The notes: generated by a model from the sequence alone, not told the origin. Counted from the first letter of the stretch, positions 4,746 to 25,663 are shown. The stretch is DNA of 64,000 nucleotides from Oceanispirochaeta sp. (GCA_963663385.2 CAXXXD010000004.1:224001-288000), one strand, 5' to 3'. Made by a program: numbers and translations.

Positions 4746-4850
4746 GAATACTTCCCTTTTTTCTTCACGTTAGATCTTTTCTCATGAATATCCTCCGTAT
4801 GGCAATTTAGCTCTTGTACAAAATATCCTGGTGTTAGAAATTTTCAAAAA

Positions 4851-4915
4851 AAACGAAAATAAAAGAAAACAAAAGAAAATATATATTTGACATATATTTG
4901 GTTTTGGGTTATATT
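4851..4915 (+). promoter_or_regulatory. Sigma70-type promoter of the transketolase operon with three upstream 10-bp direct repeats
   Basis: TTGACA (4887-4892), 17 bp, TATATT (4910-4915). Repeats AAACGAAAAT/AAAAGAAAAC/AAAAGAAAAT at 4851-4880. Confidence 0.6.
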
Positions 4916-5051
4916 TTGTGTATCGGATATGTTTTAATGTTTTCGTAATGATTTCTATTATTTGTGTTTTTTGGTAACAGGCAGATTATATGCTGATCGT
5001 AATCGCGGGAACAATAACAGGAAATTTTATTTCTTTAATAGGGTAGTAAAT

Positions 5052-5885: not shown

Positions 5886-6820
5886 GCAGCAGTATACCGT
5901 GCAGAAAAGCATTTACCGTGAAAATAACAGAGCTGGCTAAAAAAGATCCATCCATTATGGTTGTTACATCCGATGCCAGGGGCTCGGTTACCCTCAATCA
6001 GTATGCTGAGGAGTTGCCGGAGCAGTTTGTGGAAGTCGGGATTGCAGAACAGAATGAAGTGGGAATCGGAGCCGGGATGGCTACATTCGGGAAAAAGGTT
6101 TTTGTTTGTGCCCCCGCCTGTTTCCTATCGGCCAGAAGTCTGGAACAGGTTAAGGTGGATGTGGTTTATACACATACCAATGTGAAGATTATCGGAATCA
6201 GCGGTGGTATCAGTTACGGCGCTCTGGGGTATTCCCATCAATCCCTTCATGATATTGCTGTGATGCGAACCTTCCCCGGTATGGATGTGATTATTCCTTC
6301 CGACCGTTTTCAGGCTGAAGCCATTACTGAATGGCTTGTCGGGAGCGGAGAACCGGCGTATGTCAGGATGGGAAGGGGCGCCGTAAAGGATATTTACTCC
6401 CAAAGCGCTGGCAGTTTCACCTATGGAAAAGCCAATGTTTTAAAAGAAGGTGATGATATTGCCATTATAGCTGTTGGAGAAACTGTCAGCAGAGCCGTTG
6501 ATGCGGCAGAACTCCTGAATAATGAGGGAGTGAGCGCAAGGGTTCTGGATATGGCAACCATTAAACCTATTGATCGGGAAGCCGTACTTAAGGCTATGAA
6601 AGAAACCAGAGGGATTGTAACTGTTGAAGAACACAGTATTTTCGGTGGTTTGGGTTCGGCTGTTGCGGAAATCATTATTCAGGAAGAACCTGTTCCCATG
6701 CGGATTATGGGGATTCCTGATGAGATAACAGTGGAAGGCGAATCTGCAGAGATTTTTGAGTATTACAATATTACTCCGGAAGGGATTAGAGACCAAGCTC
6801 TCAGTATTTTGAAAGGTTAG
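5882..6820 (+). CDS. Transketolase, C-terminal subunit
   Basis: VEVGIAEQN, GYSHQSLHD, YVRMGR, TIKPID, TVEEHSIFGGLGSAVAE. Confidence 0.95.
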   Translation: MSSSIPCRKAFTVKITELAKKDPSIMVVTSDARGSVTLNQYAEELPEQFVEVGIAEQNEVGIGAGMATFGKKVFVCAPACFLSARSLEQVKVDVVYTHTNVKIIGISGGISYGALGYSHQSLHDIAVMRTFPGMDVIIPSDRFQAEAITEWLVGSGEPAYVRMGRGAVKDIYSQSAGSFTYGKANVLKEGDDIAIIAVGETVSRAVDAAELLNNEGVSARVLDMATIKPIDREAVLKAMKETRGIVTVEEHSIFGGLGSAVAEIIIQEEPVPMRIMGIPDEITVEGESAEIFEYYNITPEGIRDQALSILKG

Positions 6821-6823
6821 GAA

Positions 6824-8320
6824 ATGATGGCAGAGAAGAAGTACTTTTTAACAATCGATCAGGGCACTTCCGGGACGAAAGCCTTAATTTTTGGTCGTGA
6901 CGGCAAGATGATCTGCCGTCATGATGAGGGACATAGACAGTTTTATCCCCGGCCGGGGTGGGTCGAGCATGATCCTGAAGAGATTTTTGCCAATACCCTG
7001 AAAGCTGCAAAAGAAGTAATGAATATGGCTGGGACGAGCAGCCGTGAGATAATCTGTATCTCCATTTCCAATCAGAGAGAAACCACCCTTATGTGGGATC
7101 GTGTGTCAGGGAAACCTGTTATGAATGCTGTCGTATGGCAGTGTCAGAGGGGGGAGGGCGTTTGCAAAGAGCTTGAGAAAGAAGGAGCAGCCCCAGACGT
7201 TAAGAAAAAAACCGGAATGGTACTTTCCCCTTATTTTTCAGCGGCAAAAGCTAAATGGATTATGGATAACTGTGTGAATAACAATTCCAGGATTAATAGG
7301 GAGAATGTTGCTTTTGGTACCATGGATAGTTATCTGATATGGAAGCTGACCGACGGAAAGGTTCATGCCACCGATTACTCCAACGCCAGCCGGACCCAAC
7401 TGTTCAATCTTCATACCCTGAAATGGGATGAGGATTTGCTCAATATGTTTGGTTTGGATCCATTCATGATGCCCGAAGTGAGAAGTTCCAATGCCCGGTA
7501 CGGGGAGACTCCCGAGGGAATGTTTGATACGAAGATTCCTGTCGCGGGTGTTCTGGGAGACTCCCATGCGGCCTTCTTTGGGCAGTGCTGTACTGAGAGA
7601 GGCATGACAAAAACAACCTACGGAACAGGATCTTCCGTGATGATGAATATTGGTGATACGCCGATAGATTCTAAAAATGTTGTGACATCCGTTGGGTATT
7701 CTATTGATAATGAAGTTGTGTTTGTTCTGGAAGGGAATATTAACTGCACAGGAGCAACAATAAAGTGGCTGGTCGATGATATTGAACTGTTTGGTTCTTC
7801 CAAAGAGGTTGGAGGCCTGGCCGAATCCGTGGAGGACAACCAGGGGGTATATCTGGTTCCCGCCCTGACCGGTTTAAGCGCTCCTCACTGGAATAGTGAA
7901 GTGCGGGCCGTGATTTCCAATATGTCCAGGGGGACCAAAAAAGCCCATATCGCCAGAGCAGCCGAAGAGTCTATTGTATATCAGATTATGGATGTCATTA
8001 ATGCCATGGGTGAAGAATCTGGGATTCAGGTGGCTGACCTTAGAGTTGATGGCGGCCCTACCAGGGATAACTTTCTTATGCAATTCCAGTCTGATATGCT
8101 GAACGCCCCTGTTGTCAGGAATAAAATAGAAGAGCTTTCAGCTACGGGTGCTATGTATATGGGAGGTCTGGCGATGAAGATCTGGGATACCGTTCGGGAA
8201 ATAGAGAAGCTCCGCGAAATAGAGATAACCTTTAAACCTGTTATGAGCGCTGAGGTAAGACGAAAAAATTATTCCGGATGGAAGAAAGCTGTGAATAACC
8301 TGCTTCAGTCTGAAAATTAG
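6824..8320 (+). CDS. FGGY family carbohydrate kinase (glycerol-kinase-like; possible apulose kinase)
   Basis: IDQGTSGTK, GWVEHDP, SNQRET, TDYSNASRT, GDSHAA, KTTYGTG, LRVDGG. Confidence 0.9.
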   Translation: MMAEKKYFLTIDQGTSGTKALIFGRDGKMICRHDEGHRQFYPRPGWVEHDPEEIFANTLKAAKEVMNMAGTSSREIICISISNQRETTLMWDRVSGKPVMNAVVWQCQRGEGVCKELEKEGAAPDVKKKTGMVLSPYFSAAKAKWIMDNCVNNNSRINRENVAFGTMDSYLIWKLTDGKVHATDYSNASRTQLFNLHTLKWDEDLLNMFGLDPFMMPEVRSSNARYGETPEGMFDTKIPVAGVLGDSHAAFFGQCCTERGMTKTTYGTGSSVMMNIGDTPIDSKNVVTSVGYSIDNEVVFVLEGNINCTGATIKWLVDDIELFGSSKEVGGLAESVEDNQGVYLVPALTGLSAPHWNSEVRAVISNMSRGTKKAHIARAAEESIVYQIMDVINAMGEESGIQVADLRVDGGPTRDNFLMQFQSDMLNAPVVRNKIEELSATGAMYMGGLAMKIWDTVREIEKLREIEITFKPVMSAEVRRKNYSGWKKAVNNLLQSEN

Positions 8321-12449: not shown

Positions 12450-13421
12450 CTATTTCAGTATCTGGGAAGAAACAGGATCTGTCGGTTCTCCCCCGATAGT
12501 CGCTCTGATTGTGGCGATCCCCTCCGCTTCAAAGGCTGAGGCAACCTTGTCCTGCAGCTCTTTTCCGGGGGTCAGGGCTACCATATATCCTCCCCGGCCT
12601 CCCCCTGTCACCTTGGCGCCAAAGGCGCCCAGGGCATTGGCTCTGTTGCAGAGTTCAATCAGTTTTTCATGTGAGAGTCCCATATCAATAAGTATTTCAT
12701 GGTTTTCATTCATAATGCGGCCGGTCTCCTTCAGATCTCCCGCAGAAAGGGCATGACCCAGCTCTTCAACCTGGCTTTTAATCCGTGTCAGCCTTTTATC
12801 AAAAAGATCGGGATCTTTTTTCTGCTGTTCTTCCAGAAAGCCCTTCAGGGATGCGGTATTGGCTGTTATCCCGCTATTCCCCAACACGATTTCGACCGGT
12901 TCCGACAGAGTGATTCTTTCAAACTGTTTGACATCGTCCTTTATTCTGTATTTAATGACGCCCCCGTAGGTGGATACTGTGTTGTCCAGACCGCTTGGAA
13001 GACCGTGATATCCGAATTCTCCTTCCCAGGCTACATGGTTTATATCCAGAATATCCATTCCCAAATCGAATTCCCGGTTGCAGGCCCGGGTAAAGGAGAC
13101 GCAGATTGCCGCACTGGCTCCCACGCCGCTGCCGGCCAGAAGATCTCCCTCTACAGTTATCTTTATGGGATTCTTTTCCAGATCCAGTCCCATAACTTCC
13201 ACCATCCTGTCAAAGGAAGCCTGGCAATCCTCTTCTTTTGCTTTTTTATAACCGGGGACTTCTATTCTATTGTCTTCCAGTACCCAGCCGGATCCCGATT
13301 CAAGGCGTTCTACATGGCATTCTGTTTCAAAGGGAATAGCCGAAAGAACAGCCGGGACTTCCCATAAAACAAACTGATCGCCGATTAATATTGTTTTTCC
13401 GAATCCTTTTCCTGTGCCCAT
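12450..13421 (-). CDS. Mevalonate-kinase-like GHMP kinase with altered substrate motif
   Basis: GKTILIGDQFV (usually GEH), LAGSGVGASAA, HGLPSGLDN, GAKVTGGGRGG. Confidence 0.85.
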   Translation of the reverse strand: MGTGKGFGKTILIGDQFVLWEVPAVLSAIPFETECHVERLESGSGWVLEDNRIEVPGYKKAKEEDCQASFDRMVEVMGLDLEKNPIKITVEGDLLAGSGVGASAAICVSFTRACNREFDLGMDILDINHVAWEGEFGYHGLPSGLDNTVSTYGGVIKYRIKDDVKQFERITLSEPVEIVLGNSGITANTASLKGFLEEQQKKDPDLFDKRLTRIKSQVEELGHALSAGDLKETGRIMNENHEILIDMGLSHEKLIELCNRANALGAFGAKVTGGGRGGYMVALTPGKELQDKVASAFEAEGIATIRATIGGEPTDPVSSQILK

Positions 13422-14648
13422 TTATTTCATTCTCCTTTTGCTTAATACTATTTCAACTTCATCTATAAGCTGTTGTTCCTGTCCGATCTTCACCGTGGTG
13501 GCTGCTGACAGTCCATGGCAGGCGTCCGCAAAGCCTCCCAGATGCTCTGTCGCTTCGGGGAGGAATGTGTTCAGGCCGGGAATCCTGCCGGCTCTGATCT
13601 GTACAGTCAGTTCTTCCGATACTCTCATGGAAATTTTTGTTGAATCGAATCTGATCTCTCCAAAGCCCGGGACCCTGTCTGGAACATGCTGAAATCCTGC
13701 CAGATACTTTGACCTGTCCAGGAAATCCATGTCCTTTATCATAGTGCAGAACACACCGATCATCTTTACGCCCATGGGCTGAAAGCGGTCTTCCACATCG
13801 AACCACTGCAGGTGCTCCGTTGTATTTATCGTTTCTTTGAGTCTTTCAATTTCGTTCCGGAATATGATGTTCTGCTTACGGATCAATTCATCTGCATATT
13901 CCGCAGTAGCGGAATCAATCCCTGACTGGCAGATCTCTACACCCCGATCCGTCCCGTTGCTGTAATACCCGACACCGCCCATCGTATCCAGGGTACGGCA
14001 GAGTTCTTCAGCTTTATACTCCCGGTCTCCCAGATTCATAAAGTACTGTTCGCCTTCTTCTGTTTTTTCAACACGGAGCAGGGATTTTTCCTCAGCGATT
14101 TTCATCACATCCCTGTTCACGCCTGAGAGACAGCCTTCTACCAGAAACCCGTCTCCTATGGCTCCGAGGGCGCCCAGGTGAGAGTAGGGTTCCGCACTTT
14201 TCCCCATGCTCTGAAGAAGCCGGTTCGCAAACAGATAGCAGGTAGCTGAGGCCGATATGTCGCGGTCACCCTTTAAACCGAACAGTTCCCCGTCCAGGCA
14301 GAAAACCGAATCATCAATTACTCCTTCAGTCGGATGGTGATCCAGAATGATTATAAGATTCCGACCTTTGTTCATATCTGCTATGATAGGAGCAATCTTG
14401 CCGGCAAAATCGGCAAAAAAGATAATCTGATCATCCCCCGGCAGTATTTTCTCCAGAACCTGAGGATACGGTTTTTCCAGTGAGAACCGGGAAACTTTAT
14501 AGCCGGATTGGCTTAGAGCATTCAGAAGAATGGTTCCCGAGCTTAAACCGTCTGTATCATTATGATGCAGAAGCGTAATTTCCCGGGCCGGATTCTTCTG
14601 TAATGCCGCGATGGCTTTATCCATTGCTAAAAGAAGGTTATCAATCAT
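13422..14648 (-). CDS. DHH family phosphoesterase
   Basis: HHNDTDG, FADF, ILDHHP, GAIGD. The C-terminal GGGH motif is degenerate (FADACH). Abuts the kinase gene. Confidence 0.8.
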   Translation of the reverse strand: MIDNLLLAMDKAIAALQKNPAREITLLHHNDTDGLSSGTILLNALSQSGYKVSRFSLEKPYPQVLEKILPGDDQIIFFADFAGKIAPIIADMNKGRNLIIILDHHPTEGVIDDSVFCLDGELFGLKGDRDISASATCYLFANRLLQSMGKSAEPYSHLGALGAIGDGFLVEGCLSGVNRDVMKIAEEKSLLRVEKTEEGEQYFMNLGDREYKAEELCRTLDTMGGVGYYSNGTDRGVEICQSGIDSATAEYADELIRKQNIIFRNEIERLKETINTTEHLQWFDVEDRFQPMGVKMIGVFCTMIKDMDFLDRSKYLAGFQHVPDRVPGFGEIRFDSTKISMRVSEELTVQIRAGRIPGLNTFLPEATEHLGGFADACHGLSAATTVKIGQEQQLIDEVEIVLSKRRMK

Positions 14649-14682
14649 TGTTTCTCCAAATAGGTTTAAAAATCAAAGGTTA

Positions 14683-14698
14683 TGAACGTTTTCGATCA
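14683..14698. promoter_or_regulatory. Candidate DeoR/GlpR-type operator upstream of the DHH-kinase operon
   Basis: TGAACG-TTTT-CGATCA, one mismatch from the perfect site at 15781. Confidence 0.6.
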
Positions 14699-14786
14699 GT
14701 ATAAGCTGTACAATTGATCGTTTGCAACCATTATTTTGTAAAATCTTTGAGTTGATTCCTTTAGATACTCTGAATATAATGGAAAA

Positions 14787-15584
14787 ATGAAGGATAACGA
14801 TCAAACAAAACAGCTGCAGTCCCAGGGGGCAAGGCAGGAGAGAATCATTGAACTGGTGCAGAGAGACGGTCATGTTCGGGTTCTTGATTTAAGTAAACTG
14901 CTGAATGTCTCGGAAATCACCATCCGGCGGGACCTGGCCATGCTTGAAAAGAAAAACCTTCTTGAGCGAACCCATGGCGGAGCCATATCAACGCATCGTA
15001 TCTACAAAGAGGTCAATTACAGCAGCCGGTCCGATCTGGAACTGGAGAGTAAAGACTCCATAGGAAAGCTGGCTGCTGAGATGATTAATGACGGCGATAC
15101 GGTCTTTATTAACGGGGGATCCACTACCTATCATATATTCAGGTATATTAAAAGTGAAAATGTAAAAATCATAACCACAAATCCCGGGAGCATCGGACAA
15201 ATCGAAAGACCGGATATCGAACTGATACTGGCCGGCGGTTTGTATCATCCCCAATCCAATTCCTTCTACGGCGGTATCACCAATGAAATTCTGAACCAGG
15301 TAAATGCCAATAAGGCAATTATCGGGGTTCACGGCATAAGCTGCCTTTACGGTATAACCACTCCTATGCAGTATGCGGCAGAAACAACCAGGCTTATGAT
15401 AAACAGGACAAGGGGAGAAGTTATCGTTGTGGCGGATCATAGCAAAATCGGGCTGGTTTCCGACTATGTTACCTGTCCTACAAACCGGATAAATACCCTG
15501 ATTACCGATCGATTTCCTGATGAAGAGTATAGGAAGGACTTTGAGGAACTGGGGATTAAAGTTATACAAACCGGTTCTAAATAA
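14787..15584 (+). CDS. DeoR/GlpR family transcriptional regulator
   Basis: VSEITIRRDL..RTHGGA, FINGGSTT, VADHSKIG. Preceded by TTGATT-17-TATAAT. Confidence 0.95.
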   Translation: MKDNDQTKQLQSQGARQERIIELVQRDGHVRVLDLSKLLNVSEITIRRDLAMLEKKNLLERTHGGAISTHRIYKEVNYSSRSDLELESKDSIGKLAAEMINDGDTVFINGGSTTYHIFRYIKSENVKIITTNPGSIGQIERPDIELILAGGLYHPQSNSFYGGITNEILNQVNANKAIIGVHGISCLYGITTPMQYAAETTRLMINRTRGEVIVVADHSKIGLVSDYVTCPTNRINTLITDRFPDEEYRKDFEELGIKVIQTGSK

Positions 15585-15743
15585 GTTCTTTTTTCAGTTC
15601 ATTTTTATTCTACTTTTCTCTCCCCTCCGGGTTTTTCCGGACACATAGAGTCTGTACAAATGCATGGATTCAATAGGTGATCGACTTGGTTCACAATGTT
15701 TATTGCGATGTTCGTAAACAATCTTCAAATTGCAAATTATTGT

Positions 15744-15798
15744 TTGACAGACTGAAAGTATCGGGTTAATGTTTCATTAATGATCGAGAACGATCATT
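15744..15798 (+). promoter_or_regulatory. Promoter of the Ugp-like ABC operon with an operator palindrome at the start site
   Basis: TTGACA (15744-15749), 17 bp, TAATGT (15767-15772). AATGATCG-AGAA-CGATCATT at 15779-15798. Confidence 0.7.
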
Positions 15799-15968
15799 CA
15801 GTGAAGCGCTTTTTTATTAGAAGAGATCAGGATGAATTTGATCGTGAAAATAGAATCATACGATCGGTTCCGATCTTTTTTCTTAAATTGTTTCAGTCAC
15901 TTAGGGATCCTTTTCCTCTAATACTTCAGAGGAAAAGGATCGGGAAAATAAAGAATAAGGAGAATTAC

Positions 15969-17306
15969 ATGAAGAAAATCAGAATGGTAGCTATAATCCT
16001 TTTTGTAGCTTTGATTTTTCCAGTTGCTGTGTCGGCGGGAGGCAGTGTTGATGTCGATGAATCGGCGGAAGTCAATATTGAATTCTGGCATGCTATGGGG
16101 GGTGACAGAATTGAGCTGATACAGGGAATTGTCGATCAGTTTATGAAAGAGAATCCCAATATCAAAGTGGATGTACAGTACTCCGGATCTTATAATGATA
16201 CGTTGAACAAAGTAAAATCGGCTTATAAAGCGGGAAATGCCCCAGATATCTTCCATTCTTATGAAATCGGTACTCTTGGATTGATTAACAGCGGGATTAT
16301 TTCTCCTCTTGATGAAATGGCTGCTAAATATGAACGTACAATCCCCTGGGATGATTTCTTTACCCCTGTGCAGAGTTATTACAAGTATAAAGGCGATCAC
16401 TATTCCATGCCGTTCAACTCTTCTACGCCTCTGATTTTCTATAACAAATCCTTTTTCGAGAAAGCCGGTCTGGATCCTGAAAATCCCCCGAAAACATACG
16501 GAGAAATCAGAGAAGCTGCTCTTGCCCTCAGGAAAGCCGGATTTGAGACTCCTATTACCTGGAATCTGCATTCATGGTATTTCGAAGAGATGATCTGTCT
16601 CCAGGATGAACCCTTTGTTAACGATAAAAACGGAAGAAGCGGTGAACTCCCCACAGAAGTTGTTTTCAACGGCAAACAGGGACAGACCGTACTCGACTGG
16701 TGGATCGGTCTGGAGAAAGAAGGACTGTTTCTTGACGTAGGTCCGGGCTGGTCAAACCATAGAGCAGCTTTCGGTTCCGGGGAAGCGGCGATTGTCATGT
16801 CTTCTTCATCAGATGTCAATACACTCACAGCTGCACTTGCGGAAAAAGGCTGGGAAATGGGAACCGGTTACATTCCAAGACCTGAAGGGGCCAAAGGCGG
16901 TGTTGCGATCGGTGGCGGTTCATTATGGATGACCAACAATCATACTCCGGAAGAAGAGCTGGCTGCGCTCAAGCTTATTACTTATATTTCTGAAGATGAG
17001 GCGCAGATGGCCTGGCACAAAGGTACCGGATATTTTCCTGTACGTAAAACAGCCATGGACAAGCTGAAGTCCGAAGGTTGGTTTGAAGAAAATCCCAACT
17101 ACCTGACTGCTTTCAATCAGCTGCTGGACAGTCCTGAATCATTGAATACGGCAGGAAGTCTTCTGGGTGTTTTTCCCGAAGTCAGAGAGCTGGTTCAGTC
17201 CGCTATTCAGGAAATGTATGCAGGCAAGCCTATCAAAGAAGCTCTCGATGAAGCTGCTGCTAAAGCAAATGCTTCAATAGCAGAGTGGAATGAAGTCATC
17301 CAGTAA
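15969..17306 (+). CDS. ABC transporter substrate-binding protein (UgpB/CUT1-like)
   Basis: Signal peptide; IEFWHAMGG, SMPFNSSTPLIFYNK, IGGGSLW, WHKGTGYFPV. AAGGAG RBS supports ATG 15969. Confidence 0.9.
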   Translation: MKKIRMVAIILFVALIFPVAVSAGGSVDVDESAEVNIEFWHAMGGDRIELIQGIVDQFMKENPNIKVDVQYSGSYNDTLNKVKSAYKAGNAPDIFHSYEIGTLGLINSGIISPLDEMAAKYERTIPWDDFFTPVQSYYKYKGDHYSMPFNSSTPLIFYNKSFFEKAGLDPENPPKTYGEIREAALALRKAGFETPITWNLHSWYFEEMICLQDEPFVNDKNGRSGELPTEVVFNGKQGQTVLDWWIGLEKEGLFLDVGPGWSNHRAAFGSGEAAIVMSSSSDVNTLTAALAEKGWEMGTGYIPRPEGAKGGVAIGGGSLWMTNNHTPEEELAALKLITYISEDEAQMAWHKGTGYFPVRKTAMDKLKSEGWFEENPNYLTAFNQLLDSPESLNTAGSLLGVFPEVRELVQSAIQEMYAGKPIKEALDEAAAKANASIAEWNEVIQ

Positions 17307-17330
17307 AAGTTAAAAAAAATGTACATTGGG

Positions 17331-17362
17331 GAGCCGTTCTTCTTTTGAAGAACGGCTCTTTT
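17331..17362 (+). terminator. Intercistronic hairpin or partial terminator after the binding-protein gene
   Basis: GAGCCGTTCTTC-TTTT-GAAGAACGGCTC followed by TTTT. Confidence 0.7.
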
Positions 17363-17377
17363 GACAAGAGGTATTTT

Positions 17378-18247
17378 ATGAATCAATCAACCTTTAATAA
17401 CAGGTGGCTTCCCTATATCTTACTGGTACCGACTTTTCTGGTTCTCTGTATTTTTCTATTTTATCCGGCGATTGAGACTTTCAGACTGAGTTTATACAAA
17501 GTCCATCCCTGGTCAGGAGCCACAAAATTTGCAGGATTATACAATTTCTCCAAAGTTTTTCAGAATCCTGATTACCTGGACAGTTTTATTCTGTCCGCCG
17601 GTTTTGCCCTTGCTGTAATTTTCGGAGGGCTGTTTTTCAGTCTGCTTGTGGCTCTTCTGCTCAATATGAAATTGAAGGGAATACGTTTCTACCGTACCTT
17701 TCTGATCTGGCCGTATGCTTTATCTCCGGCTATAGCCGGTGCCCTGTTTAATTTTCTGTTCAATCCGGCCAATGGGGTTCTCTGTTATTTTACAGGTGCG
17801 CGAACCTGGCTGACCAGCGAAAAAACAGCTATTATTGTTGTGATTGTTGCGGCGGTCTGGAAAAATCTGGGATACAACATAATTTTCTATCTGACAGCGC
17901 TGCGGAATGTGCCTGGTGCGGCATTGGAATCGGCTTCGATCGATGGGGCAGGACCGGTTAAGAGGTTTTTATATATTACTTTCGCCTTTTTATCTCCTAC
18001 GACTTTTTTCCTCTTCGTAATGAACACGATTTACGCTTATTTCTCCTGTTTTGGTTTGATAGATGTATTGACTGAGGGAGGACCGTCCGGATCAACCGGG
18101 GTTCTCATCTACCATCTTTATAAAGATTTCTTCGTCCATTCGAAAATCGGATACGCAGCGGCCGAGAGTCTGGTTCTCTTCACTTTGGTTGTCGGGGTTA
18201 CAATCCTTCAATTCAAAACAACCGGCAAAAAAGTCCACTATCAATAA
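17378..18247 (+). CDS. ABC permease (UgpA-like)
   Basis: YRTFLIWPYALSPA, WKNLGYN, EAA-like LESASIDGA, LTEGGP. Confidence 0.92.
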   Translation: MNQSTFNNRWLPYILLVPTFLVLCIFLFYPAIETFRLSLYKVHPWSGATKFAGLYNFSKVFQNPDYLDSFILSAGFALAVIFGGLFFSLLVALLLNMKLKGIRFYRTFLIWPYALSPAIAGALFNFLFNPANGVLCYFTGARTWLTSEKTAIIVVIVAAVWKNLGYNIIFYLTALRNVPGAALESASIDGAGPVKRFLYITFAFLSPTTFFLFVMNTIYAYFSCFGLIDVLTEGGPSGSTGVLIYHLYKDFFVHSKIGYAAAESLVLFTLVVGVTILQFKTTGKKVHYQ

Positions 18248-18264
18248 AAAAGGAGAGAAACCCT

Positions 18265-19089
18265 GTGAGTTATTCTAAAAAAAAGACCTTTGGCCTGCAC
18301 TTTCTGCTGGTTCTGTGTATTCTTATCATCAGCCTGCCCGTTATTCTGGCCCTGATCATCAGCACTCAGTCAGAAGCCCAGGTTATGTCCTATCCCCCGG
18401 GACTGATTCCCGGGACGAACATGATAAACAATTATACGACCGCATGGAATTCCGTTAATCTGGGACGAATGATATTCAATTCGACCTTCATTTCCTTCGG
18501 CGTTATTGCCGGGAAAGTATCGATGAGCCTTCTCGCCGCCTTTGCCTTCACTCATTTTGAGTTCAAAGGGAAAAACCTTCTTTTCGGTCTGATCCTCGTC
18601 ACACTCCTTCTGCCGGTACCGGTCAGGATTGTCGCCCTCTTCGATGTTATCAGGAGCATGGGGTGGATAAATACCTATGCGGGGCTGATGATACCCTTCT
18701 GGGCAAGCGCTACAAGTATATTTATTCTGATTCAGAGGTTTAGGGTTGTTCCTTCGGAGTTGATCGACGCATCGAAAATGGATGGCTGTCAGCCCATGCA
18801 GTATTTTTTCAAAGTACTGCTTCCTCTGACGAAAAGTACCATCGGAGCTCTTGTGGTAATCAATTTTATTTATATCTGGAATCAGTATCTCTGGCCTCTC
18901 ATGGCAACCAACAGTGATGATATGAGGGTTGTTCAGATTGGTATAAAAATGCTGATGAGCGCTGAATCCACCAATAACTGGGGAGTCATTATGGCCGGAG
19001 TTATTATAACCATGATCCCGCCGCTCCTCATTTTTATTATTATGCAGGAGAGTTTCATGGCAGGATTCGCTCTTGAGAGCGAAAAATAG
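18265..19089 (+). CDS. ABC permease (UgpE-like)
   Basis: AAFAF..FEFKGK, ELIDASKMDG, FIYIWNQYLWPL; GTG start after AGGAG. Confidence 0.92.
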   Translation: MSYSKKKTFGLHFLLVLCILIISLPVILALIISTQSEAQVMSYPPGLIPGTNMINNYTTAWNSVNLGRMIFNSTFISFGVIAGKVSMSLLAAFAFTHFEFKGKNLLFGLILVTLLLPVPVRIVALFDVIRSMGWINTYAGLMIPFWASATSIFILIQRFRVVPSELIDASKMDGCQPMQYFFKVLLPLTKSTIGALVVINFIYIWNQYLWPLMATNSDDMRVVQIGIKMLMSAESTNNWGVIMAGVIITMIPPLLIFIIMQESFMAGFALESEK

Positions 19090-19225
19090 CTGAAGAGGAT
19101 AATTCTTCAGGCTTCTAGATCATGAGCTTCAAAATACTGAGACACGGCTTTTTTTCCTCCGGACAGAATCCAGATTCTTCCTGTGGGGGCTGTTTCCTCG
19201 GAAGAGGAGGGAGGTTGGAATACTT

Positions 19226-19927
19226 ATGCTGATAATCGGCCACAGGGGAGCAATGGACCTGGCTCCTGAAAATACACTTCTTTCGATTCGCACAGCTCTT
19301 GAATCGGGAGTTCATATGGTAGAGATAGATGTCGCATTGTGCCGTTCGGGAGAATTAATGCTGATGCATGATGATGAAGTCGATAGAACGACAGATGGTA
19401 ACGGCTGCATCGCAGATCTGTCTTACCACGAGTTAAGGGCTCTGAATGCTGGAGAGGGGGAAGCTATTCCGTCTCTTCAGGAAGTGATAGATCTGATAGA
19501 CGGAAGGTGTCCGTTGAATATTGAAATTAAAGGTAAAGGGTCTTCTGACGAATTAGCAAGAATCCTTCGACGGGAAATCAATGAAAAGGGGAGAGCGAAG
19601 GAGGATTTTATCGTTTCCTCCTTTGATCATTGCGAACTTAACAGATTTACAAAGCTCTATTCCGGAATAAGAATATCCCCCATCGTCTGCTGTCACCCCC
19701 TGTCTCTGGCAAACTTAGCCGAAGAGATCGGTGCCTGGTCTCTGAATATAAAACGGGAATTTGTCAGCCGTGAGATTGTTGAAGACGCTCATAAACGAGG
19801 GATTAAGGTTCTGGTTTTTACTGTAAATCATCCCTGTGAGTTGGATAAATTAAGAGATATTGGAGTGGATGGTGTCTTTACCAATAACCGGTACCGGCTC
19901 TTGGGTTTATCGCAGCTAACCGCATAA
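19226..19927 (+). CDS. Glycerophosphodiester phosphodiesterase (UgpQ/GDPD family)
   Basis: IIGHRGA, PENT, VEIDV, MHD..VDRTT, LNIEIK, SSF, GVDGVFTN. Confidence 0.93.
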   Translation: MLIIGHRGAMDLAPENTLLSIRTALESGVHMVEIDVALCRSGELMLMHDDEVDRTTDGNGCIADLSYHELRALNAGEGEAIPSLQEVIDLIDGRCPLNIEIKGKGSSDELARILRREINEKGRAKEDFIVSSFDHCELNRFTKLYSGIRISPIVCCHPLSLANLAEEIGAWSLNIKREFVSREIVEDAHKRGIKVLVFTVNHPCELDKLRDIGVDGVFTNNRYRLLGLSQLTA

Positions 19928-19956: not shown

Positions 19957-19995
19957 TTGACAAAATAATTGGTACAGTGTTAATGTACCAATTAT
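19957..19995 (+). promoter_or_regulatory. Promoter and 12-bp-arm operator palindrome of the glycyl-radical operon
   Basis: TTGACA 19957-19962; extended -10 TGtTAATGT 19978-19986; ATAATTGGTACA-N7-TGTACCAATTAT at 19965-19995. Confidence 0.75.
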
Positions 19996-20866
19996 GAAGG
20001 TAATCCTTTTTCAGACAGGCTGGAACTACTCTCAGGACGGTCCCGGCAACAGGCTCCTCCTCCATTTTCAGGGATGCAACTTCGACTGCCCCTGGTGCAG
20101 CAACCCTGAAGGCCGGTCCCTCAAGGGGGAGCTGTTTGTCCGTCCGGATCTTCTGGATCCGGATGTCTGCCCCCATGGCGCGGTTATGGAGTCCGGTCTG
20201 AACCGCAGCCTCTGCAGGAACTGCCGGGACAGGGAATGCCTGGGGATTTACCGAAACCAGGGTGTGTATGCCTCCGCCAGGGAGTATGAGGTGGAAGAGC
20301 TGGTTGAAATGGCTGTGCAGTCCCGGTCCCTTTTTTTCGACGGGGGGGGCGTTACCATAAGCGGGGGGGAGGCCACCCTTCAGTTTGATGCGCTTAATCG
20401 GCTCCTGCAGAGGCTGAAGGAGGAAGGCATCCATACGGCCCTTGAAACTAACGGAAGTCACCCGGAGCTTTCCGCTCTTTTTCCGTATATTGATCTTCTC
20501 ATTTTTGATCTCAAGCATTATGACTTTCCGGCAGTCCATAAGGTACTGAAAAACCGGGGAGCCCATGTCAGGAAAAATCTGGAGAACATATGCCAATCCG
20601 ATCAGCCGGTTCTGGTCAGAGTTACGGTTATCCCCGGATTCAACAGTTCCTTTGAAGATATGGAAAAGTTTGCCGATCTTTTTTCCTCCCAGAGATGGAA
20701 AGACAATTTCAGACTGGAACTCCTCTATTATCACGATTTCGGAAAGGTGAAATGGGATGCCATCGGTCAGGAGTACAAAGGTCCGGATGAATCTGTTTCG
20801 GAAGAGGATAAGGCGGTATACCGCAGAATATTCAAAGAGAGGAATCTCGATCTGATAGAGACATAG
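19994..20866 (+). CDS. Glycyl-radical enzyme activating enzyme (radical SAM)
   Basis: QDGPGNR, GCNFDCPWCSNPE (CX3CX2C), Cys-rich ferredoxin-like insert, GGVTISGGE, HTALETNG, FDLK. Confidence 0.93.
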   Translation: MKVILFQTGWNYSQDGPGNRLLLHFQGCNFDCPWCSNPEGRSLKGELFVRPDLLDPDVCPHGAVMESGLNRSLCRNCRDRECLGIYRNQGVYASAREYEVEELVEMAVQSRSLFFDGGGVTISGGEATLQFDALNRLLQRLKEEGIHTALETNGSHPELSALFPYIDLLIFDLKHYDFPAVHKVLKNRGAHVRKNLENICQSDQPVLVRVTVIPGFNSSFEDMEKFADLFSSQRWKDNFRLELLYYHDFGKVKWDAIGQEYKGPDESVSEEDKAVYRRIFKERNLDLIET

Positions 20867-20882
20867 AACAGGGAGACGAATC

Positions 20883-23270
20883 ATGAATTGGCAGGATGTC
20901 TATAAAAAGGGAGAAAGGGCGTCGGAGTTGGCGGATGCCTGTTTTCAGGAACAAAAGAGAACCCATATCCTGAACGGGTGGTTCAGGGTTCTGGAAATCC
21001 ATAAAGATGCCGCTCCGCACTTTCCGGAAGGTGCCTCACTGGAGACGCAGGCGGCCCTCAGGCTGAAAGCGGTTGTTGAAAATCTACCTCTGTCCATCAG
21101 TGACAGTGCTGTCTTTGCGGGAACCCAGAATGACGCCTTTTCGAGCAGTTATGCCCTGATTCATCCTTCCTTTAAAGTGGAGGAATTCAAGGGGTATTGT
21201 GATCCCCTGGCGGTCTTCAATGACCTGGGCCCCGAAGAGGGGATGACCTGTGAAAGGATTGATGCGGTTAAAGGGTACTACGCCCGGACGGATTATGTAA
21301 AAGAACTGAATGCTTCCTATGCTAACTGCCGGGAACAGACAGAAGAAGCCCTTTTCTTTGTAGAACAGGTAACCGGTCATCTGATACCCGATTTTTCACA
21401 GCTGATCAAACTGGGAACGGAGGGTGTAAAAAAACGGCTTTTTGAAAAGGAAGCGGAGGAGCTGTCGTCAGCAAAGAAAGACAGTCTTCGGGCTATGATC
21501 AGTTCTCTGGACTCGCTTGATACACTTGCCCGCCGCTACAGGGATATAGCCCGGCTGCATCTGGAAGGAGAGAGTGATCCGCAGAGGCGGAATGAGTGGG
21601 CCCTTATGGTTCAGACACTGGAGGGGGCCCCCCTGACCGGGGCAAAGACCCTCTACGAAGCCATACAGGTATTTATCCTCTGCTGGCAGGTGATGTGTCT
21701 GGAGCAGTGTCCCAATCCCTATGCTTTTTCCGCCGGGAATGTGGACCGCCTTTTCGAACCCTACCGGGCAGCGGATAAAGCGGACAGAGAGTCTTCCGCC
21801 GGGTTGTTCCAGGCTTTGCTGGCGTTTTTCAATGTGGGCGACCGCAGCTGGGCCATCTCCCAGAATCTGCTTCTAAGCGGCCGGGACGTTGCTGGAAAAG
21901 ATCTGACAAATCCTGCAAGCTATGCCATCCTGGATGCCTTTTACAAAGGGCGTTACCCTCAGCCTATTCTATCCATACGACTGCATAAGAACAGTCCGGA
22001 AGGGTTGTATCGTTCTACGGGCCGGTTTTTCTTTACCCCCGGGCAGCTGACGCCCTCCCTTTTTAACGACGATTCCCTGATCCCCCTGCTGGTGGAGCAG
22101 GGGGTCTCTCCCGATGATGTGGAAAACTACGCCATCGCTGGCTGTCAGGAACCCCTTATCGCCGGTAAGGATAACGGAAATACCACCAATAGCTGGCTTA
22201 ATCTGGCAAAGGTTCTTGAGATAACCCTGAATGAGGGACGTTCCTCCATTACAGGCCGGAAGTTAGGGGTGTCGCCCTCTGAACTGCTGGGGCAGGAACT
22301 TTCGGCAAAAGAGCTGCTTCTGAGAATCCGGGAGGTCTACTATAAACAGCTGGATGCCGCATTAGCCCTTATGACCGAGGCGGGAGATAGCTGTTCCCGG
22401 GCGCTTTCCAATCTGAGAGTGCCCTTCCTCTCCTGCTCCATGGGCGGTATGGAATCCGGGGTTGATCTGAGGAACGACAGAGAGCAGGGAACCCGTTACA
22501 ACGGCAGCGGCTGTCTGATACACGGCCTTTCTGTTCTGGCTGATTCCTTTCAGTCCCTCTCTGATTTTGCGGACAGTAAAAGTGAAGAAGAGTGCCGTCA
22601 TCTGCTGCAGGCTCTTAAGAGTGATTACAGGGATGATGAAGTCCTCCGGCAGTATCTTGCGAGCAGTCCCAAATTCGGAAACAATATTTCCTCTGTCGAC
22701 GGAGAGGCGGTAGAGATTGTTGCCCGTGTCTCCGATAGGGTAAGGGAGAAGAAGAACTACCTGGGCAATCCTTTCCGGCCGGACTGGAGCTCCCCCTCCA
22801 CCCATCTGCTCTACGGGTACTGGACCGGAGCCACTCCCGACGGCCGCCGGGCCCGTACCATGCTGGGATACGGGGTTGACCCCCTATACGGTGAGGCGGC
22901 AGCCGGTATGAATTCGCGGCTCCTTTCCCTTAAAAAACTGCCCTATGAAAAGATGAACGGGGGCTGTGCCTGTCACCTCGGAATCAATCCGGCCTGTTTC
23001 CCCGAGGAAACCCTTGAAGATAAAGGCGCGGCTTTCAGGGGGAAGGTTCTGGATCCTCTCTTTAACCTTTCCGGAGACGGCGGAAAGATAGGTCCCTTCT
23101 ATCTCTATGTAAATGTTACGACAGCCGGGACTCTGCGTAAGGTACTGGAGAAGCCGGAAAAATATGCTCCTTCGGGAGTTTATATTATGAGAATCCACGG
23201 GACTTTTGTGAATTTCCTGGATCTCTCCCCCTCTATTCAGGAGGATATTATCCTTCGTCTGGATAACTGA
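20883..23270 (+). CDS. Glycyl-radical enzyme (PFL superfamily) of unknown reaction
   Basis: 795 aa; Cys loop AIAGCQEP, NLAKVLE, PKFGN, GATPDGR; C-terminal LRKVLEKPEKY..MRIHGTFVNF..LS..IQEDII. Adjacent to an activase. Confidence 0.88.
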   Translation: MNWQDVYKKGERASELADACFQEQKRTHILNGWFRVLEIHKDAAPHFPEGASLETQAALRLKAVVENLPLSISDSAVFAGTQNDAFSSSYALIHPSFKVEEFKGYCDPLAVFNDLGPEEGMTCERIDAVKGYYARTDYVKELNASYANCREQTEEALFFVEQVTGHLIPDFSQLIKLGTEGVKKRLFEKEAEELSSAKKDSLRAMISSLDSLDTLARRYRDIARLHLEGESDPQRRNEWALMVQTLEGAPLTGAKTLYEAIQVFILCWQVMCLEQCPNPYAFSAGNVDRLFEPYRAADKADRESSAGLFQALLAFFNVGDRSWAISQNLLLSGRDVAGKDLTNPASYAILDAFYKGRYPQPILSIRLHKNSPEGLYRSTGRFFFTPGQLTPSLFNDDSLIPLLVEQGVSPDDVENYAIAGCQEPLIAGKDNGNTTNSWLNLAKVLEITLNEGRSSITGRKLGVSPSELLGQELSAKELLLRIREVYYKQLDAALALMTEAGDSCSRALSNLRVPFLSCSMGGMESGVDLRNDREQGTRYNGSGCLIHGLSVLADSFQSLSDFADSKSEEECRHLLQALKSDYRDDEVLRQYLASSPKFGNNISSVDGEAVEIVARVSDRVREKKNYLGNPFRPDWSSPSTHLLYGYWTGATPDGRRARTMLGYGVDPLYGEAAAGMNSRLLSLKKLPYEKMNGGCACHLGINPACFPEETLEDKGAAFRGKVLDPLFNLSGDGGKIGPFYLYVNVTTAGTLRKVLEKPEKYAPSGVYIMRIHGTFVNFLDLSPSIQEDIILRLDN

Positions 23271-23273
23271 GAT

Positions 23274-24314
23274 ATGGATAAAAATACGCTCTACCAGACA
23301 ATCCGGCTGGATTTTTTTAAAAAAGTCTACGCCGGAGAAATCCGGCCGCATCAGCCCCTGCCCGCCGAAAGAAAGCAGGCGGAAGAGCTCTCTGTCAGCC
23401 GGGGGACCATCCGTAAGGCCCGTCAGATCCTGGCCGAGGAGGGTTATATTGCCAATACCCAGGGAAGTGCCGCTGTCTATACGCCGCTTGCGAAGGGTCC
23501 ATCGGGAAAGCCGGAGATTGTGGCGGTGGTTGTTCCGGTGCATAACCCTTTTTTCATGTCCTACTACAGGGCATTCGAGAAAGAAGCGGAAGAGGCGGAT
23601 GTCCTGGTGATGATCAAGCAGCTGGACAGCCGAAATGCGGGTCAGCTCAAGAAGGTCCTGTTCTCCTTTTTTATAAAAGGGATACGGGATGTGGTGTTCT
23701 GGCCCTACGATACGGTCCTGGATTATCCGTATATAGAGCGGCTCAGCGGTCTGGGGATGAACTTCATATTCTTTGATAATGTTCATGATTTCCCCTGCTG
23801 CGACTATATCAGTGTGGATAACCGGGATGGGATTTCCCTTCTGTACAAATCCTTACAGGATAAGGGGTGCGGTCGTATAGCCTATATGGGGTGGGATAAT
23901 CCGCATCTCACCAGCAACTCAGAGCGGGAAGCTGCTTTCCGTCAGGAAAAATCCGAAGGGGACCGGGTTATCCGTATACCCTGGAATCAGGAAGATTTAA
24001 GCTTTGATCTGCTGGAAAGCGTTCTGAATCTGCCGGATCTAAGGGGAGAACGGAAAATCGACGGTTTCCTCTGCGGTAACGGACTGATCGGTGTGGTTTT
24101 AAAACGGTATCTGAATAATAACGGCTTTTCCGGTATCCCTTTGGTCTCCATTGATAATTTTGAAGAATCAGAAGATCTAGGATTTACCGTATACGAACAG
24201 CCCTTTGAAATGATGGGACGGAAAACCTTTCATCTTCTGGAAAAACGACACAGGGATGAGAAAGGGAACAGCCCGGAGAAACTTTATATAAAAGGCAGGT
24301 TGATTGAGAGATGA
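23274..24314 (+). CDS. GntR-HTH / LacI-type sugar-binding regulator (AraR-like architecture)
   Basis: LPAER..AEELSVSRGTIRKA HTH; HNPFF, ISVDNRDG, EREAAF, TVYEQP. Confidence 0.9.
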   Translation: MDKNTLYQTIRLDFFKKVYAGEIRPHQPLPAERKQAEELSVSRGTIRKARQILAEEGYIANTQGSAAVYTPLAKGPSGKPEIVAVVVPVHNPFFMSYYRAFEKEAEEADVLVMIKQLDSRNAGQLKKVLFSFFIKGIRDVVFWPYDTVLDYPYIERLSGLGMNFIFFDNVHDFPCCDYISVDNRDGISLLYKSLQDKGCGRIAYMGWDNPHLTSNSEREAAFRQEKSEGDRVIRIPWNQEDLSFDLLESVLNLPDLRGERKIDGFLCGNGLIGVVLKRYLNNNGFSGIPLVSIDNFEESEDLGFTVYEQPFEMMGRKTFHLLEKRHRDEKGNSPEKLYIKGRLIER

Positions 24315-25663
24315 ATTTAATCGGATTGGATATCGGTACTACCACTATAGGCGGCGTCCTGTACTCTCTGAAAGAGAGGAAGACCCTTAAAACTTTGGTG
24401 TGGGACAACCTTTTTACAGACAGCGCCCCGGGGGAATATACTCAGGACCCGCTTGCTGTTCTGGACAGTGTAAAAGCCATTCTGGATGAACTGATAGACG
24501 CCTCTTCCGATACGGTTGGAGGCTGTTCTCTCAGCGCTCAGATGCACGGGATCCTCTATGTAGACGGAACGGGCCAGCCGGTGTCTCCCTTCTATACCTG
24601 GCAGAACCAGAGAGGCCGGAGACTCCACGAGGGGCAGTCCCTTGAATCGTTTCTATCGTATAAACTGGGCTATCCTGTTCATACCGGCTACGGGATTGTA
24701 ACCCACTATTCATTGATGCTGGATAACAGCATCCCCGCTTCAGCCGTTAAATTCTGCAATATCGGCGATTTTGTCTGTATGCGTCTGGCCGGGAAAACGG
24801 AACCAGTAACGGATATTACCCTTGGCGCCAGTCTGGGGATTGCGGATATCAGCACCGGCAGGCTGTCAGAAAGTCTCAGAAACCTGGATTTCGCGGAAGA
24901 TGACAGGATTCCCCGGATTGTTTCGTCAACGGAAAAGCTGGGAGAATACCGGGGGGTTCCCGTTATTCAGCCTCTGGGGGATAATCAGGCCAGCTTTCTG
25001 GGATCCGTAAAGGATAAGGAGAACAGCCTGCTCCTCAACTACGGTACAGCCGGACAGATCTCATTTTTCAGGAATACTTTTGCCTCCTACGCCGGATTCG
25101 AGACCAGACCCCTTGGGAATGAAGGATACCTTTATGCGGCTTTTTCTCTCTGCGGGGGGAAATCCTATATGGTTCTGGCTGATTTCTTTAAAGCCGCGGT
25201 CAGGCTTTTTTCTCCTTCTGAAGAGGGTAACGTTCTTGAGGTTATGGACAGTCTGGAACTGGACTTTTCTGAGGATGCGATTGAGTGTCTGCCTCTTTTT
25301 CTGGGAGAAAGGGGAGGCCGGGATGAGTTTGCTTCTTTCAGTAATATTACCGACAGGAACTTTTCTCCTGAAAATATGGTTAAGGCCCTGGTTCAGGGGA
25401 TGGTGGATGAACTGCGCCGCTACTACTGCGATCTGCCTGATTCTGTCAGAACGGGGCTTGAGACCCTGGTGGGCGCCGGTAACGGAATCAGAAAAAACCT
25501 GCATCTGCAGAAAGCGGCAGAGCAGCGCTACGGAAAACCTGTCAAGATACTGGATTTGAGTGAAGAAAGCTGTCTGGGGGCCGTGATCAATGCCGGAAAG
25601 GGTGTGGGGATATTTCGCAATTACAGGGAAGGAGCTCTGAATATCGTCAGATATCGTTCGTAA
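24311..25663 (+). CDS. FGGY family kinase, sedoheptulokinase-like
   Basis: IGLDIGTTT, QMHG, YTWQ, TGYGIVT, LGDNQASFLG, LNYGTAGQIS, LCGGKSY, GNGIRKN. Confidence 0.85.
   Translation: MNLIGLDIGTTTIGGVLYSLKERKTLKTLVWDNLFTDSAPGEYTQDPLAVLDSVKAILDELIDASSDTVGGCSLSAQMHGILYVDGTGQPVSPFYTWQNQRGRRLHEGQSLESFLSYKLGYPVHTGYGIVTHYSLMLDNSIPASAVKFCNIGDFVCMRLAGKTEPVTDITLGASLGIADISTGRLSESLRNLDFAEDDRIPRIVSSTEKLGEYRGVPVIQPLGDNQASFLGSVKDKENSLLLNYGTAGQISFFRNTFASYAGFETRPLGNEGYLYAAFSLCGGKSYMVLADFFKAAVRLFSPSEEGNVLEVMDSLELDFSEDAIECLPLFLGERGGRDEFASFSNITDRNFSPENMVKALVQGMVDELRRYYCDLPDSVRTGLETLVGAGNGIRKNLHLQKAAEQRYGKPVKILDLSEESCLGAVINAGKGVGIFRNYREGALNIVRYRS

Follow-up and report, generated by a model that had tools for sequence, protein, structure and literature searches.

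In this work, we describe a putative catabolic locus in a 64,000-nucleotide (nt) stretch of DNA from Oceanispirochaeta sp. (the window, whose numbering is used for all positions; the host genome, G000, is 5.3 Mb long and 98% complete), in which a DHH-DHHA1 hydrolase and a GHMP kinase are encoded divergently from a DeoR-family repressor, itself followed by an UgpB/A/E-like importer and a glycerophosphodiester phosphodiesterase (GDPD). Most likely, a sediment-type spirochaete here imports glycerol-phosphate diesters derived from lipid head groups and degrades them with two repurposed enzymes: as far as sequence and fold comparisons tell, the kinase most likely descends from mevalonate kinase (MK) and the hydrolase from an archaeal DNA-trimming nuclease (RecJ). 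At the level of the pathway, conversion of glycerophosphodiesters to sn-glycerol-3-phosphate (G3P) is a probable assignment; the more specific proposal of a DeoR-repressed catabolism, in which the kinase acts before the hydrolase, is advanced tentatively.

In the proposed scheme, a DeoR-repressed regulon would serve the use of glycerol-phosphate diesters, above all of glycerophosphoglycerol (GPG, diglycerol phosphate), the water-soluble part left over from phosphatidylglycerol and similar lipids. The diester would enter through an Ugp-like ABC system, with its ATPase encoded elsewhere, or through a TRAP transporter. The kinase would phosphorylate the free CH2OH of the sn-1-linked glycerol; the glycerol-phosphate arm has the length of mevalonate, with phosphorus at the place of the carboxylate carbon. 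The product, P-glycerol-P-X, would resemble the end of a 5'-phosphorylated oligonucleotide, and could be cut exonuclease-style by the RecJ-fold DHH protein into sn-G3P and P-X. In GPG originating from phosphatidylglycerol, one arm is sn-3 and the other sn-1, and the net reaction for bacterial GPG would be GPG + ATP + H2O -> 2 sn-G3P + ADP, with neither free glycerol nor leftover sn-glycerol-1-phosphate (G1P). G3P could then reach the GlpA-like dehydrogenase of the host or lipid synthesis, the phosphorylated intermediate would be the likely inducer, and the GDPD, where present, would take ordinary sn-3 diesters. GlpQ-type GDPDs are described as specific for sn-3 diesters in the available text of bioRxiv 2020.01.08.899310.

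The DHH-kinase pair and its importers

The comparison of loci indicates that the conserved unit is an almost obligate pair of DHH protein and kinase, served by interchangeable importers. A first set of 67 loci carrying a kinase of the same clade (37 from spirochaetes, 30 from other organisms) was analyzed: the DHH gene lies directly 5' of the kinase gene in 59. In the remaining eight, the kinase is right behind ugpBAE and the DHH gene elsewhere in the genome in L001, L006 and L026, pieces of a DHH gene are found in two loci, and no DHH match in three. When 401 genomes were sampled evenly from the phylum of the host, both genes were found in the same 10, adjacent in nine out of nine examined; co-occurrence of the neighbouring genes across genomes, proposed as a check in the original prediction, is thus borne out for the pair. 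Another 80 loci, at least one of which duplicates a locus of the first set, were found in metagenomes with a DHH alignment: 71 contain close DHH relatives (60 with the kinase, 7 ending too early, 4 without it), and nine contain distant relatives (33–39% identity), none of which is accompanied by the clade kinase.

Importers linked to the pair are predicted to bind glycerol phosphates or their diesters. Ugp-like permeases are found in 13 of the 37 spirochaete loci and TRAP transporters in nine. The best structural match of the TRAP binder of one of the latter loci (L002) is 4N6K (E 1.7e-176, 262 of 308 residues identical, about 85%), with 4PFB next, and the other eight pair-linked TRAP binders are 73–86% identical to that of L002; the available text of PMC11668362 reports diglycerol phosphate as the ligand of 4N6K, which discriminates against the monoester, and glycerol phosphate as that of 4PFB. 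The UgpB-like protein of the window keeps eight (Y75, E99, S152, W203, S279, G316, Y355 and R406) of the nine ligand residues given for Phaeobacter UgpB (Y64, E88, S143, W188, W191, S266, G303, Y342 and R393; accessible part of PMC12718374): the ninth, the first clamp Trp (W188 position), is Leu200, and Leu is found there in 11 of 11 spirochaete copies. M. tuberculosis UgpB, which also has Leu at that position, is reported to bind diesters, not G3P (bioRxiv 529602, excerpt).

The ligand of the close TRAP homologue and the UgpB pocket both sustain the earlier proposal that the substrate is an imported phosphodiester. The unusual compound then envisaged fares less well: an exotic head group is not favoured, and a glycerol-phosphate diester, GPG, looks likelier. 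As a control, three spirochaete genomes were considered, which contain a TRAP homologue of 55–57% identity and lack both DHH and kinase: GDPD follows TRAP in all three, and HAD IIA flanks it in two. Neither GDPD nor HAD IIA was found in the nine DHH-kinase TRAP loci, two of which end early. Because the genomes without the pair place GDPD, and in two cases also HAD IIA, there, the pair appears to replace GDPD plus phosphatase.

A few further importers deserve mention. PotABCD-like systems stand in place of Ugp or TRAP before DHH-kinase in L173, L174, L176 and L180; two of these loci carry a DeoR gene with weaker operator-like sites, and control by GlpP found no support, no GlpP being seen in the five genomes examined. 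A PhnD-like binder at L100 was rejected as a GpxB, its best structures being phosphite binders, with 9LF9 fourth. A search of 401 genomes from the phylum to which G038 belongs gave no TRAP orthologue at E <= 1e-110. An Na/Pi cotransporter follows the kinase in three TRAP loci; one of 72% identity to that behind the kinase in L021 is found in the host (C4:141612-146430), followed by a TRAP system with a binder sharing 40% identity with the diglycerol-phosphate type, and this region is probably a separate glycerol-phosphate uptake unit.

Proposed order of the reactions and probable identity of the two enzymes

The kinase-first order is favoured because GlpK is already present in the host and, above its cut-off, in 36 of 50 carrier genomes, because the DHH protein has conserved counterparts, by motif, of nucleotide-phosphate-binding residues of RecJ, and because the kinase clade has Arg210, invariant in 40 of 40 members and found in 0 of 13 kinases outside.

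A number of observations weigh against this scheme. The Arg binding the carboxylate in MK (R169 in L. major) is Ile, Leu or Val across the clade, and position 193 is Lys or Arg in spirochaetes and Asp, as in about half of the clade, in Chloroflexota and Desulfobacterales; a neutral substrate such as glycerol suits these changes equally well. An FGGY kinase, in one case a true GlpK, accompanies five of the nine distant DHH relatives, which suggests a hydrolase able to release glycerol. The host glpK and G3P-dehydrogenase genes lack an operator among the top 40 hits of the matrix described below. As to the ligand, its identity is taken over from a homologue of another genome, and the window has an ABC system, not TRAP; in lineages other than spirochaetes, both Trp residues are retained by the pair-linked Ugp binders (9/9); and in four of nine further loci the importer is the PotABCD-like system, for which polyamine binders are the top structural matches. 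With Ugp in 13 of 37 loci, TRAP in nine and PotABCD-like systems in four of nine, substrates may differ between loci. Finally, the loci share descent and are not independent.

Some of these points bear on the main rival, the opposite order: the DHH protein would cut the diester (or dephosphorylate sn-G1P) to glycerol, and the GHMP protein would be a new, non-FGGY glycerol kinase making sn-G3P, with the same net reaction. This is a possible, although doubtful, explanation. Besides the lost Arg, the Asp at position 193 and the FGGY/GlpK kinases adjoining distant DHH relatives, it is suited by the order of the genes, DHH then kinase in nearly all loci; however, it makes the kinase redundant with GlpK, and the HAD phosphatases found in 14 of the 30 non-spirochaete loci would make a plain phosphatase DHH redundant.

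A special form of the kinase-first scheme, which we regard as conceivable rather than likely, is that the pair is an ATP-driven stereo-inversion module, turning sn-glycerol-1-phosphate units into sn-G3P via P-glycerol-P-X. The units meant are the sn-1 arm of GPG, archaeal lipid head groups, lipoteichoic-acid fragments and free G1P, which GlpQ-type enzymes cannot attack.

Less probable than either is that the pair acts on the other half of the diester, the kinase substrate being a non-glycerol head group or polyol (phosphate) freed by GDPD or DHH. The presence of GDPD with the pair in 14 of the 30 non-spirochaete and 18 of the 80 metagenome loci, three unrelated importer families and an MggS-like GT4 glycosyltransferase beside the DHH gene in six spirochaete loci would all agree with it, but the only known ligand of a close homologue carries a glycerol at either end, all identified catabolic neighbours act on glycerol or glycerol phosphate, and no further polyol-pathway gene is conserved in 160 clustered loci.

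The kinase could also be thought a genuine MK, used for mevalonate salvage and only incidentally linked to a transporter. It matches the GHMP N- and C-terminal domains and exceeds the TIGR00549 cut-off (170 versus 163 bits), many clade members falling just below it (152–162 bits); its best match, by both sequence and fold, is L. major MK (E 9e-51, TM 0.92), and the GHMP fold, the ATP motif and catalytic K9, E135, S143, D146 and T189 are present. In the comparison with the mevalonate-bound L. major structure (available part of PMC1851959), K18, I20, V27, E144, S152, D155, Y167 and T198 (L. major numbering) are kept. In contrast, the mevalonate pocket features the changes E24>D15, H25>Q16, V28>L19, R169>I160 and V202>K193, and neither the motif-1 Glu-His nor the hydrophobic pocket for the C3 methyl (His25, Val28, Val202) is found. 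E24D is tolerated in human MK, but none of the 40 clade kinases retains His25 (position 16 being Gln or Ala, and position 15 always Asp), which is kept in 13 of 13 outside; the two groups are separated by a branch with 100% support (FastTree, unrooted, 53 rows). The outside loci, mostly archaeal, sit among archaeal mevalonate-pathway genes (recognised by eye), and none of the 13 has a close DHH neighbour. Motif 1 reads D-S or D-A instead of D-Q in L118, L149, L153, L036, L038, L040, L043 and L045, which suggests sub-specialisation within the clade. Thr283>Gly was discarded as a diagnostic change, being found also in 7 of the 13 outside kinases.

Genome content points the same way as the pocket. 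The host has dxr, ispE and ispG, hence the methylerythritol phosphate (MEP) route, and no match was found in its 98%-complete genome to HMG-CoA reductase (HMGR), mevalonate-diphosphate decarboxylase (MDD_C) or AcnX; a mevalonate pathway, on whose presence the idea that the kinase serves something other than isoprenoid synthesis would have foundered, was searched for and not found. In the 50 of 67 carrier genomes covered by the mevalonate-pathway searches, HMGR scores above cut-off in 24, only two of them among the 20 spirochaete carriers; a second mevalonate-kinase-like (MVK-like) gene is found elsewhere in 21 of these 24, the other three showing none, and in 16 carriers it scores 249–275 bits. 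Because the host uses MEP, the pocket is remodelled and 21 of 24 HMGR carriers have a second MVK, a role as mevalonate kinase is improbable for this protein, and mevalonate salvage is very unlikely. Nor does it stand in for IspE, a true copy of which is among the other four GHMP genes of the host (the remaining three being galactokinase-like, by eye), or for a lost GlpK, which the host and 36 of 50 carriers possess. A search of plasmids for the kinase gave no match.

The DHH protein scores just below the Pfam cut-off (26 versus 28.1 bits); its metal-binding motifs I–IV, with ligands H29, D31, D33, D80, the DHH at 103–105 and D166, are conserved, and its predicted model (pLDDT 97) has the DHH-DHHA1 fold, with archaeal RecJ2 (Z 36.6, rmsd 3.0, 353 residues aligned), RecJ-Cdc45 (Z 33.4) and PfuRecJ (TM 0.81) as best matches. 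K338/S340/R342 and H378, conserved in 98–100% of 106 sequences, were matched by motif to K406/S408/R410 and H440 of P. furiosus RecJ, which the available text of PMC5716160 gives as nucleotide-(phosphate-)binding residues. That the protein is itself a nuclease or oligonucleotide phosphodiesterase, acting in DNA repair or nucleotide scavenging, is highly improbable: these folds, a distant relative joined to a family-B polymerase (P0274) and another next to ssb (L098) would fit, but sequence likeness to RecJ is limited to the N-terminal domain (residues ~12–195), scores are far below the RecJ-family cut-offs (NF053576 130/360, NF053575 61/850 bits, the match being limited to residues 18–195), the protein is ~25–70 residues shorter, the contexts are overwhelmingly glycerol-phosphate genes, and the single host copy lies in a repressor-controlled catabolic operon. 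As to a CMG-interaction domain (CID), the Pfam scan gave no DHH_CID match, in a protein shorter than GAN.

The wider DHH family, which has no name, comprises 126 representatives at E <= 1e-30, and its Atlas clusters are rich in Bathyarchaeota and Thermodesulfobacteriota. Fusions of distant relatives include HAD+DHH+GlpD (P0312, Magnetococcales, 1810 aa) and HAD+DHH (P0357, 835 aa); the polymerase fusion of P0274 is possibly a read-through, and P0358 has an unannotated N-terminal half. In L094, L095, L097 and L099 a divergent FGGY kinase lies 5' of distant DHH relatives, as a second, unrelated kinase partner (L094, L097 and L099: 150–196 bits versus the GlpK cut-off of 590).

The putative DeoR-linked operator

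Co-regulation of the DHH-kinase and transporter operons via a DeoR-linked operator, as predicted from sequence, is well supported by the comparison of sites. The presence of one palindrome in both promoter regions, already noted in the original prediction, holds up both in window counts and with a matrix of conserved sites. TGATCG-N4-CGATCA, with up to two mismatches, occurs nine times in the window versus 3.05 +/- 1.73 in shuffled sequences, none of 100 shuffles reaching nine, a contrast inflated by the derivation of the pattern from the same window; six of the nine fall within or at the edge of the two promoter regions. The copy at 15781 is the only perfect one in the 5.3-Mb genome, where 15 one-mismatch copies, in the window or elsewhere, are also found. 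With a matrix derived from 28 sites of 13 other genomes, the window sites reach 22.7, 21.4 and 17.3 bits and rank 3, 4 and 8 in the genome; the two hits ranked above fall inside open reading frames (ORFs).

The DeoR gene is found in 17 of the 37 spirochaete loci: a matrix site of at least 14 bits lies near the start of DHH, kinase, DeoR or binding-protein gene in 16 of these 17, and in none of the 20 without DeoR. Thirteen of the 17 are training loci of the matrix, and three of the four untrained ones are positive. The operator thus appears to travel with the DeoR gene, as far as sequence can tell, and the two operons, whose independence would have spoken against a common regulon, look co-regulated. 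The window sites overlap promoter-like sequences as repressor sites would, the 32-bp spacing of the paired sites recurs in L002, L009, L011, L014, L021, L022, L032, L034 and L062, and counterparts of the site over the DeoR start codon are found at the same place in L011, L034 and L062. Over the entire region, the promoter scan does not exceed random expectation (12 hits versus 11.5), nor do terminator counts exceed those of shuffles.

The DeoR protein is below all named-subfamily cut-offs, AgaR-type models (AgaR 174/260 bits) outscoring that of GlpR (NF008154, 101/331 bits). The window operator resembles the E. coli GlpR box, and sites in L002 and L021 read exactly TGTTCG-N4-CGAACA, the GlpR-type form; such a box may be common to DeoR proteins. 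A genome-wide regulon was discarded, the remaining top matrix hits being inside ORFs or before unrelated genes. A 20.7-bit operator-like palindrome is found at C3:327368 of the host, 35 bp 5' of a gene for a 1139-aa protein, by eye an Fe-hydrogenase/oxidoreductase fusion, and may reflect chance or a distant regulon member.

The GDPD, originally counted as part of the regulon, is better seen as accessory: no separate operator accompanies it in the window, and GDPD is found near the pair in only 1 of 37 spirochaete loci, versus 14 of 30 non-spirochaete and 18 of 80 metagenome loci. In Anaerolineae, its link to the pair may be partly plain synteny.

Locus features, neighbours and known systems

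The features of the locus are reported in Table 1. The arrangement originally described, a DHH-kinase operon divergent from DeoR, UgpBAE-like genes and GDPD, is reproduced by the ORFs, and family scans agree with it. The DHH stop codon abuts the kinase start, the DHH gene running directly into the kinase gene. UgpB, UgpA and UgpE models are the best matches of the three importer genes, yet remain under their equivalog cut-offs (234/411 bits for UgpB). GDPD matches PF03009 with 138 bits (cut-off 23.6) and is below the UgpQ equivalog cut-off. No ABC ATPase gene (ugpC) lies in the locus, the best host candidate being an orphan gene (C4:348839-349942).

Table 1. Predicted genes and sites of the locus (window positions)
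Feature	Position	Strand	Basis or remark
GHMP kinase, mevalonate-kinase fold, distinct 'D-Q' clade, 323 aa	12450-13421	-	ORF, family scan
DHH-DHHA1 metallo-phosphoesterase, archaeal RecJ/GAN fold, 408 aa	13422-14648	-	ORF, family scan, fold
Operator-like palindrome	14681-14700		1 mismatch, 21.4 bits; overlaps -10 end of DHH-kinase promoter-like site
Sigma70-like promoter, DHH-kinase	14698-14727	-	TTGCAA-18-TATACT, 9/12
Second operator-like site	14713-14732		32 bp from 14681 site
Sigma70-like promoter, DeoR gene	14752-14780	+	TTGATT-17-TATAAT, 10/12
Weak operator-like site	14786-14805		14.4 bits; over DeoR start codon
DeoR-family repressor, 265 aa	14787-15584	+	ORF, family scan
Weaker operator-like site	15707-15726		15.3 bits; 5' of transporter promoter
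Promoter-like site, transporter	15744-15772		TTGACA-17-TAATGT; read by eye, under scan threshold
Operator-like site, perfect 8-4-8 palindrome	15779-15798		just 3' of TTGACA-17-TAATGT site
UgpB-like solute-binding protein, 445 aa	15969-17306	+	ORF, family scan; start picked by eye 3' of ribosome-binding site, listed ORF begins 15780
Perfect hairpin	17333-17356	+	between UgpB-like gene and first permease
UgpA-like permease	17378-18247	+	243 bits, cut-off 335
UgpE-like permease	18265-19089	+	236 bits, cut-off 297
GDPD, UgpQ-like, 233 aa	19226-19927	+	PF03009; by eye without signal peptide

A GDPD paralogue, 63% identical, is found elsewhere in the host (C2:1795475-1796167), adjoining a transposase-like ORF that recurs at C3:322532. 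Right after GDPD, on the plus strand, the window contains (19994-25663) an unassigned glycyl-radical catabolic operon with a glycyl-radical activase, a glycyl-radical enzyme far under every named cut-off, a regulator and a divergent FGGY kinase. Another plus-strand cluster (33-8320), which we take to resemble apiose-type catabolic clusters, includes a sugar ABC ATPase and permease, an isomerase-like gene, a second DeoR, a transketolase split into N and C parts and an FGGY kinase barely over the GlpK cut-off (597/590).

Neighbours of DHH-family genes include GlpA and GlpB above cut-off (L156), GlpC-like (L124) and GlpK above cut-off (L100); many others of the 40 neighbours scanned are unrelated housekeeping genes. 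A gene resembling glycerol-1-phosphate dehydrogenase (G1PDH; L119, L170; E ~1e-50, under cut-off) occurs in five loci of one lineage, 76–89% identical; it was rejected as a replacement of the kinase, since four of the five also show the kinase. HAD IIA is near the pair in 0 of 37 spirochaete, 14 of 30 non-spirochaete and 15 of 80 metagenome loci, and ugpB in 9 of the 80. The host has, besides GlpK, a GlpA-like three-gene cluster, by eye a G3P dehydrogenase of the Firmicute type, and no AraM/EgsA-like (G1P dehydrogenase) gene was found in its genome. The MggS-like glycosyltransferase (206/640 bits) flanks DHH, along with a hemerythrin-PAS protein, in L008, L020, L029 and L081-L083, a possible link to compatible-solute metabolism. 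A lipoprotein-like protein of ~360 aa, for which neither Pfam nor NCBIfam gave a match, lies behind ugpE or flanks DHH in L007 (2943-4028), L009, L013, L018 and L023, and could be a periplasmic partner enzyme.

Taken as a whole, the locus represents a genuine and widespread variant of glycerophosphodiester use, which seems to be undescribed and is based on two reassigned enzyme families. Full-text searches for GHMP with glycerophosphodiester and DHH, for a GPG kinase, DHH or phosphodiesterase, and for G1P catabolism with archaeal lipid degradation returned nothing relevant, subscription journals and bioRxiv supplements being outside their coverage. The scheme provides a testable catabolic route for GPG, which is left behind by one of the commonest bacterial lipids; the structure of a GPG-binding protein has been solved, but the literature searched contains no dedicated downstream enzymes. 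If true, the GHMP family would gain a new activity, and an archaeal RecJ/Cdc45-type fold would prove to be reused in small-molecule metabolism; moreover, a clade labelled 'mevalonate kinase' in databases can falsely imply a mevalonate pathway in MEP-using bacteria. The stereo-inversion form, if true, would be a first enzymatic route for archaeal-chirality lipid backbones into the metabolism of anaerobic sediment bacteria (spirochaetes, Anaerolineae, Desulfobacterales), and would bear on the recycling of archaeal-chirality glycerol phosphate, a question posed in the accessible text of PMC12718374.

One of the closest known systems is E. coli ugpBAECQ/glp (UgpB 4AQ4, UgpQ/GlpQ, GlpR), which shares with the locus an UgpB/A/E-type importer, a cytoplasmic-type GDPD and a DeoR-family repressor. 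In contrast, the window lacks ugpC in the locus, Leu replaces Trp169 in the binding protein, the core enzymes, DHH and GHMP kinase, are unknown in ugp/glp, and host glpK and G3P dehydrogenase are outside this operator. By sequence criteria the system would thus work like ugp/glp and yet is distinct from it, having no UgpC, no GlpR membership and other core enzymes. The TRAP binder Desal_0342 (4N6K), ~85% identical to that of L002, is not encoded in the window; TRAP replaces Ugp beside DeoR-DHH-kinase in nine spirochaete loci, and the available text of PMC11668362, citing Vetting et al. 2015, describes binding only, without downstream enzymes.

With Leishmania and archaeal MK (2HFS/2HFU; TIGR00549) the kinase shares the fold (TM 0.92), the ATP motif, the catalytic Lys and Asp, Ser152, Tyr167 and Thr198, but motif 1 changes from E-H to D-Q/A, the methyl pocket and carboxylate Arg are remodelled, the clade is separate, with 100% support, most of its spirochaete hosts lack a mevalonate pathway and 21 of 24 HMGR carriers hold a second MVK. 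Similarly, the DHH protein has the DHH-DHHA1 fold, metal ligands, K-S-R and late His in common with archaeal RecJ/GAN/RecJ2 (5X4H, 7YKV, 7BHI), pAp phosphatase 8A8K, NrnA and GdpP, and differs in its length of ~400 aa, 18–23% identity in structural alignments, GF-DACH in place of GGGH and location in a bacterial metabolic operon.

Two further systems deal with the chirality of glycerol phosphates. The Phaeobacter GpxB/UgpB work (PMC12718374) describes UgpB-type import of both chiralities and asks how sn-1 material is recycled; in its accessible part it concerns transport only, the supplementary table listing neither DHH nor phosphatase, and a histidine kinase as sole kinase. The CLN6 GPG epimerase, according to the available text of PMC13692256, also alters glycerol stereochemistry at the level of GPG, but is a eukaryotic, biosynthetic, Ca2+-dependent single protein, unrelated to the ATP-using, two-enzyme catabolic route proposed here.

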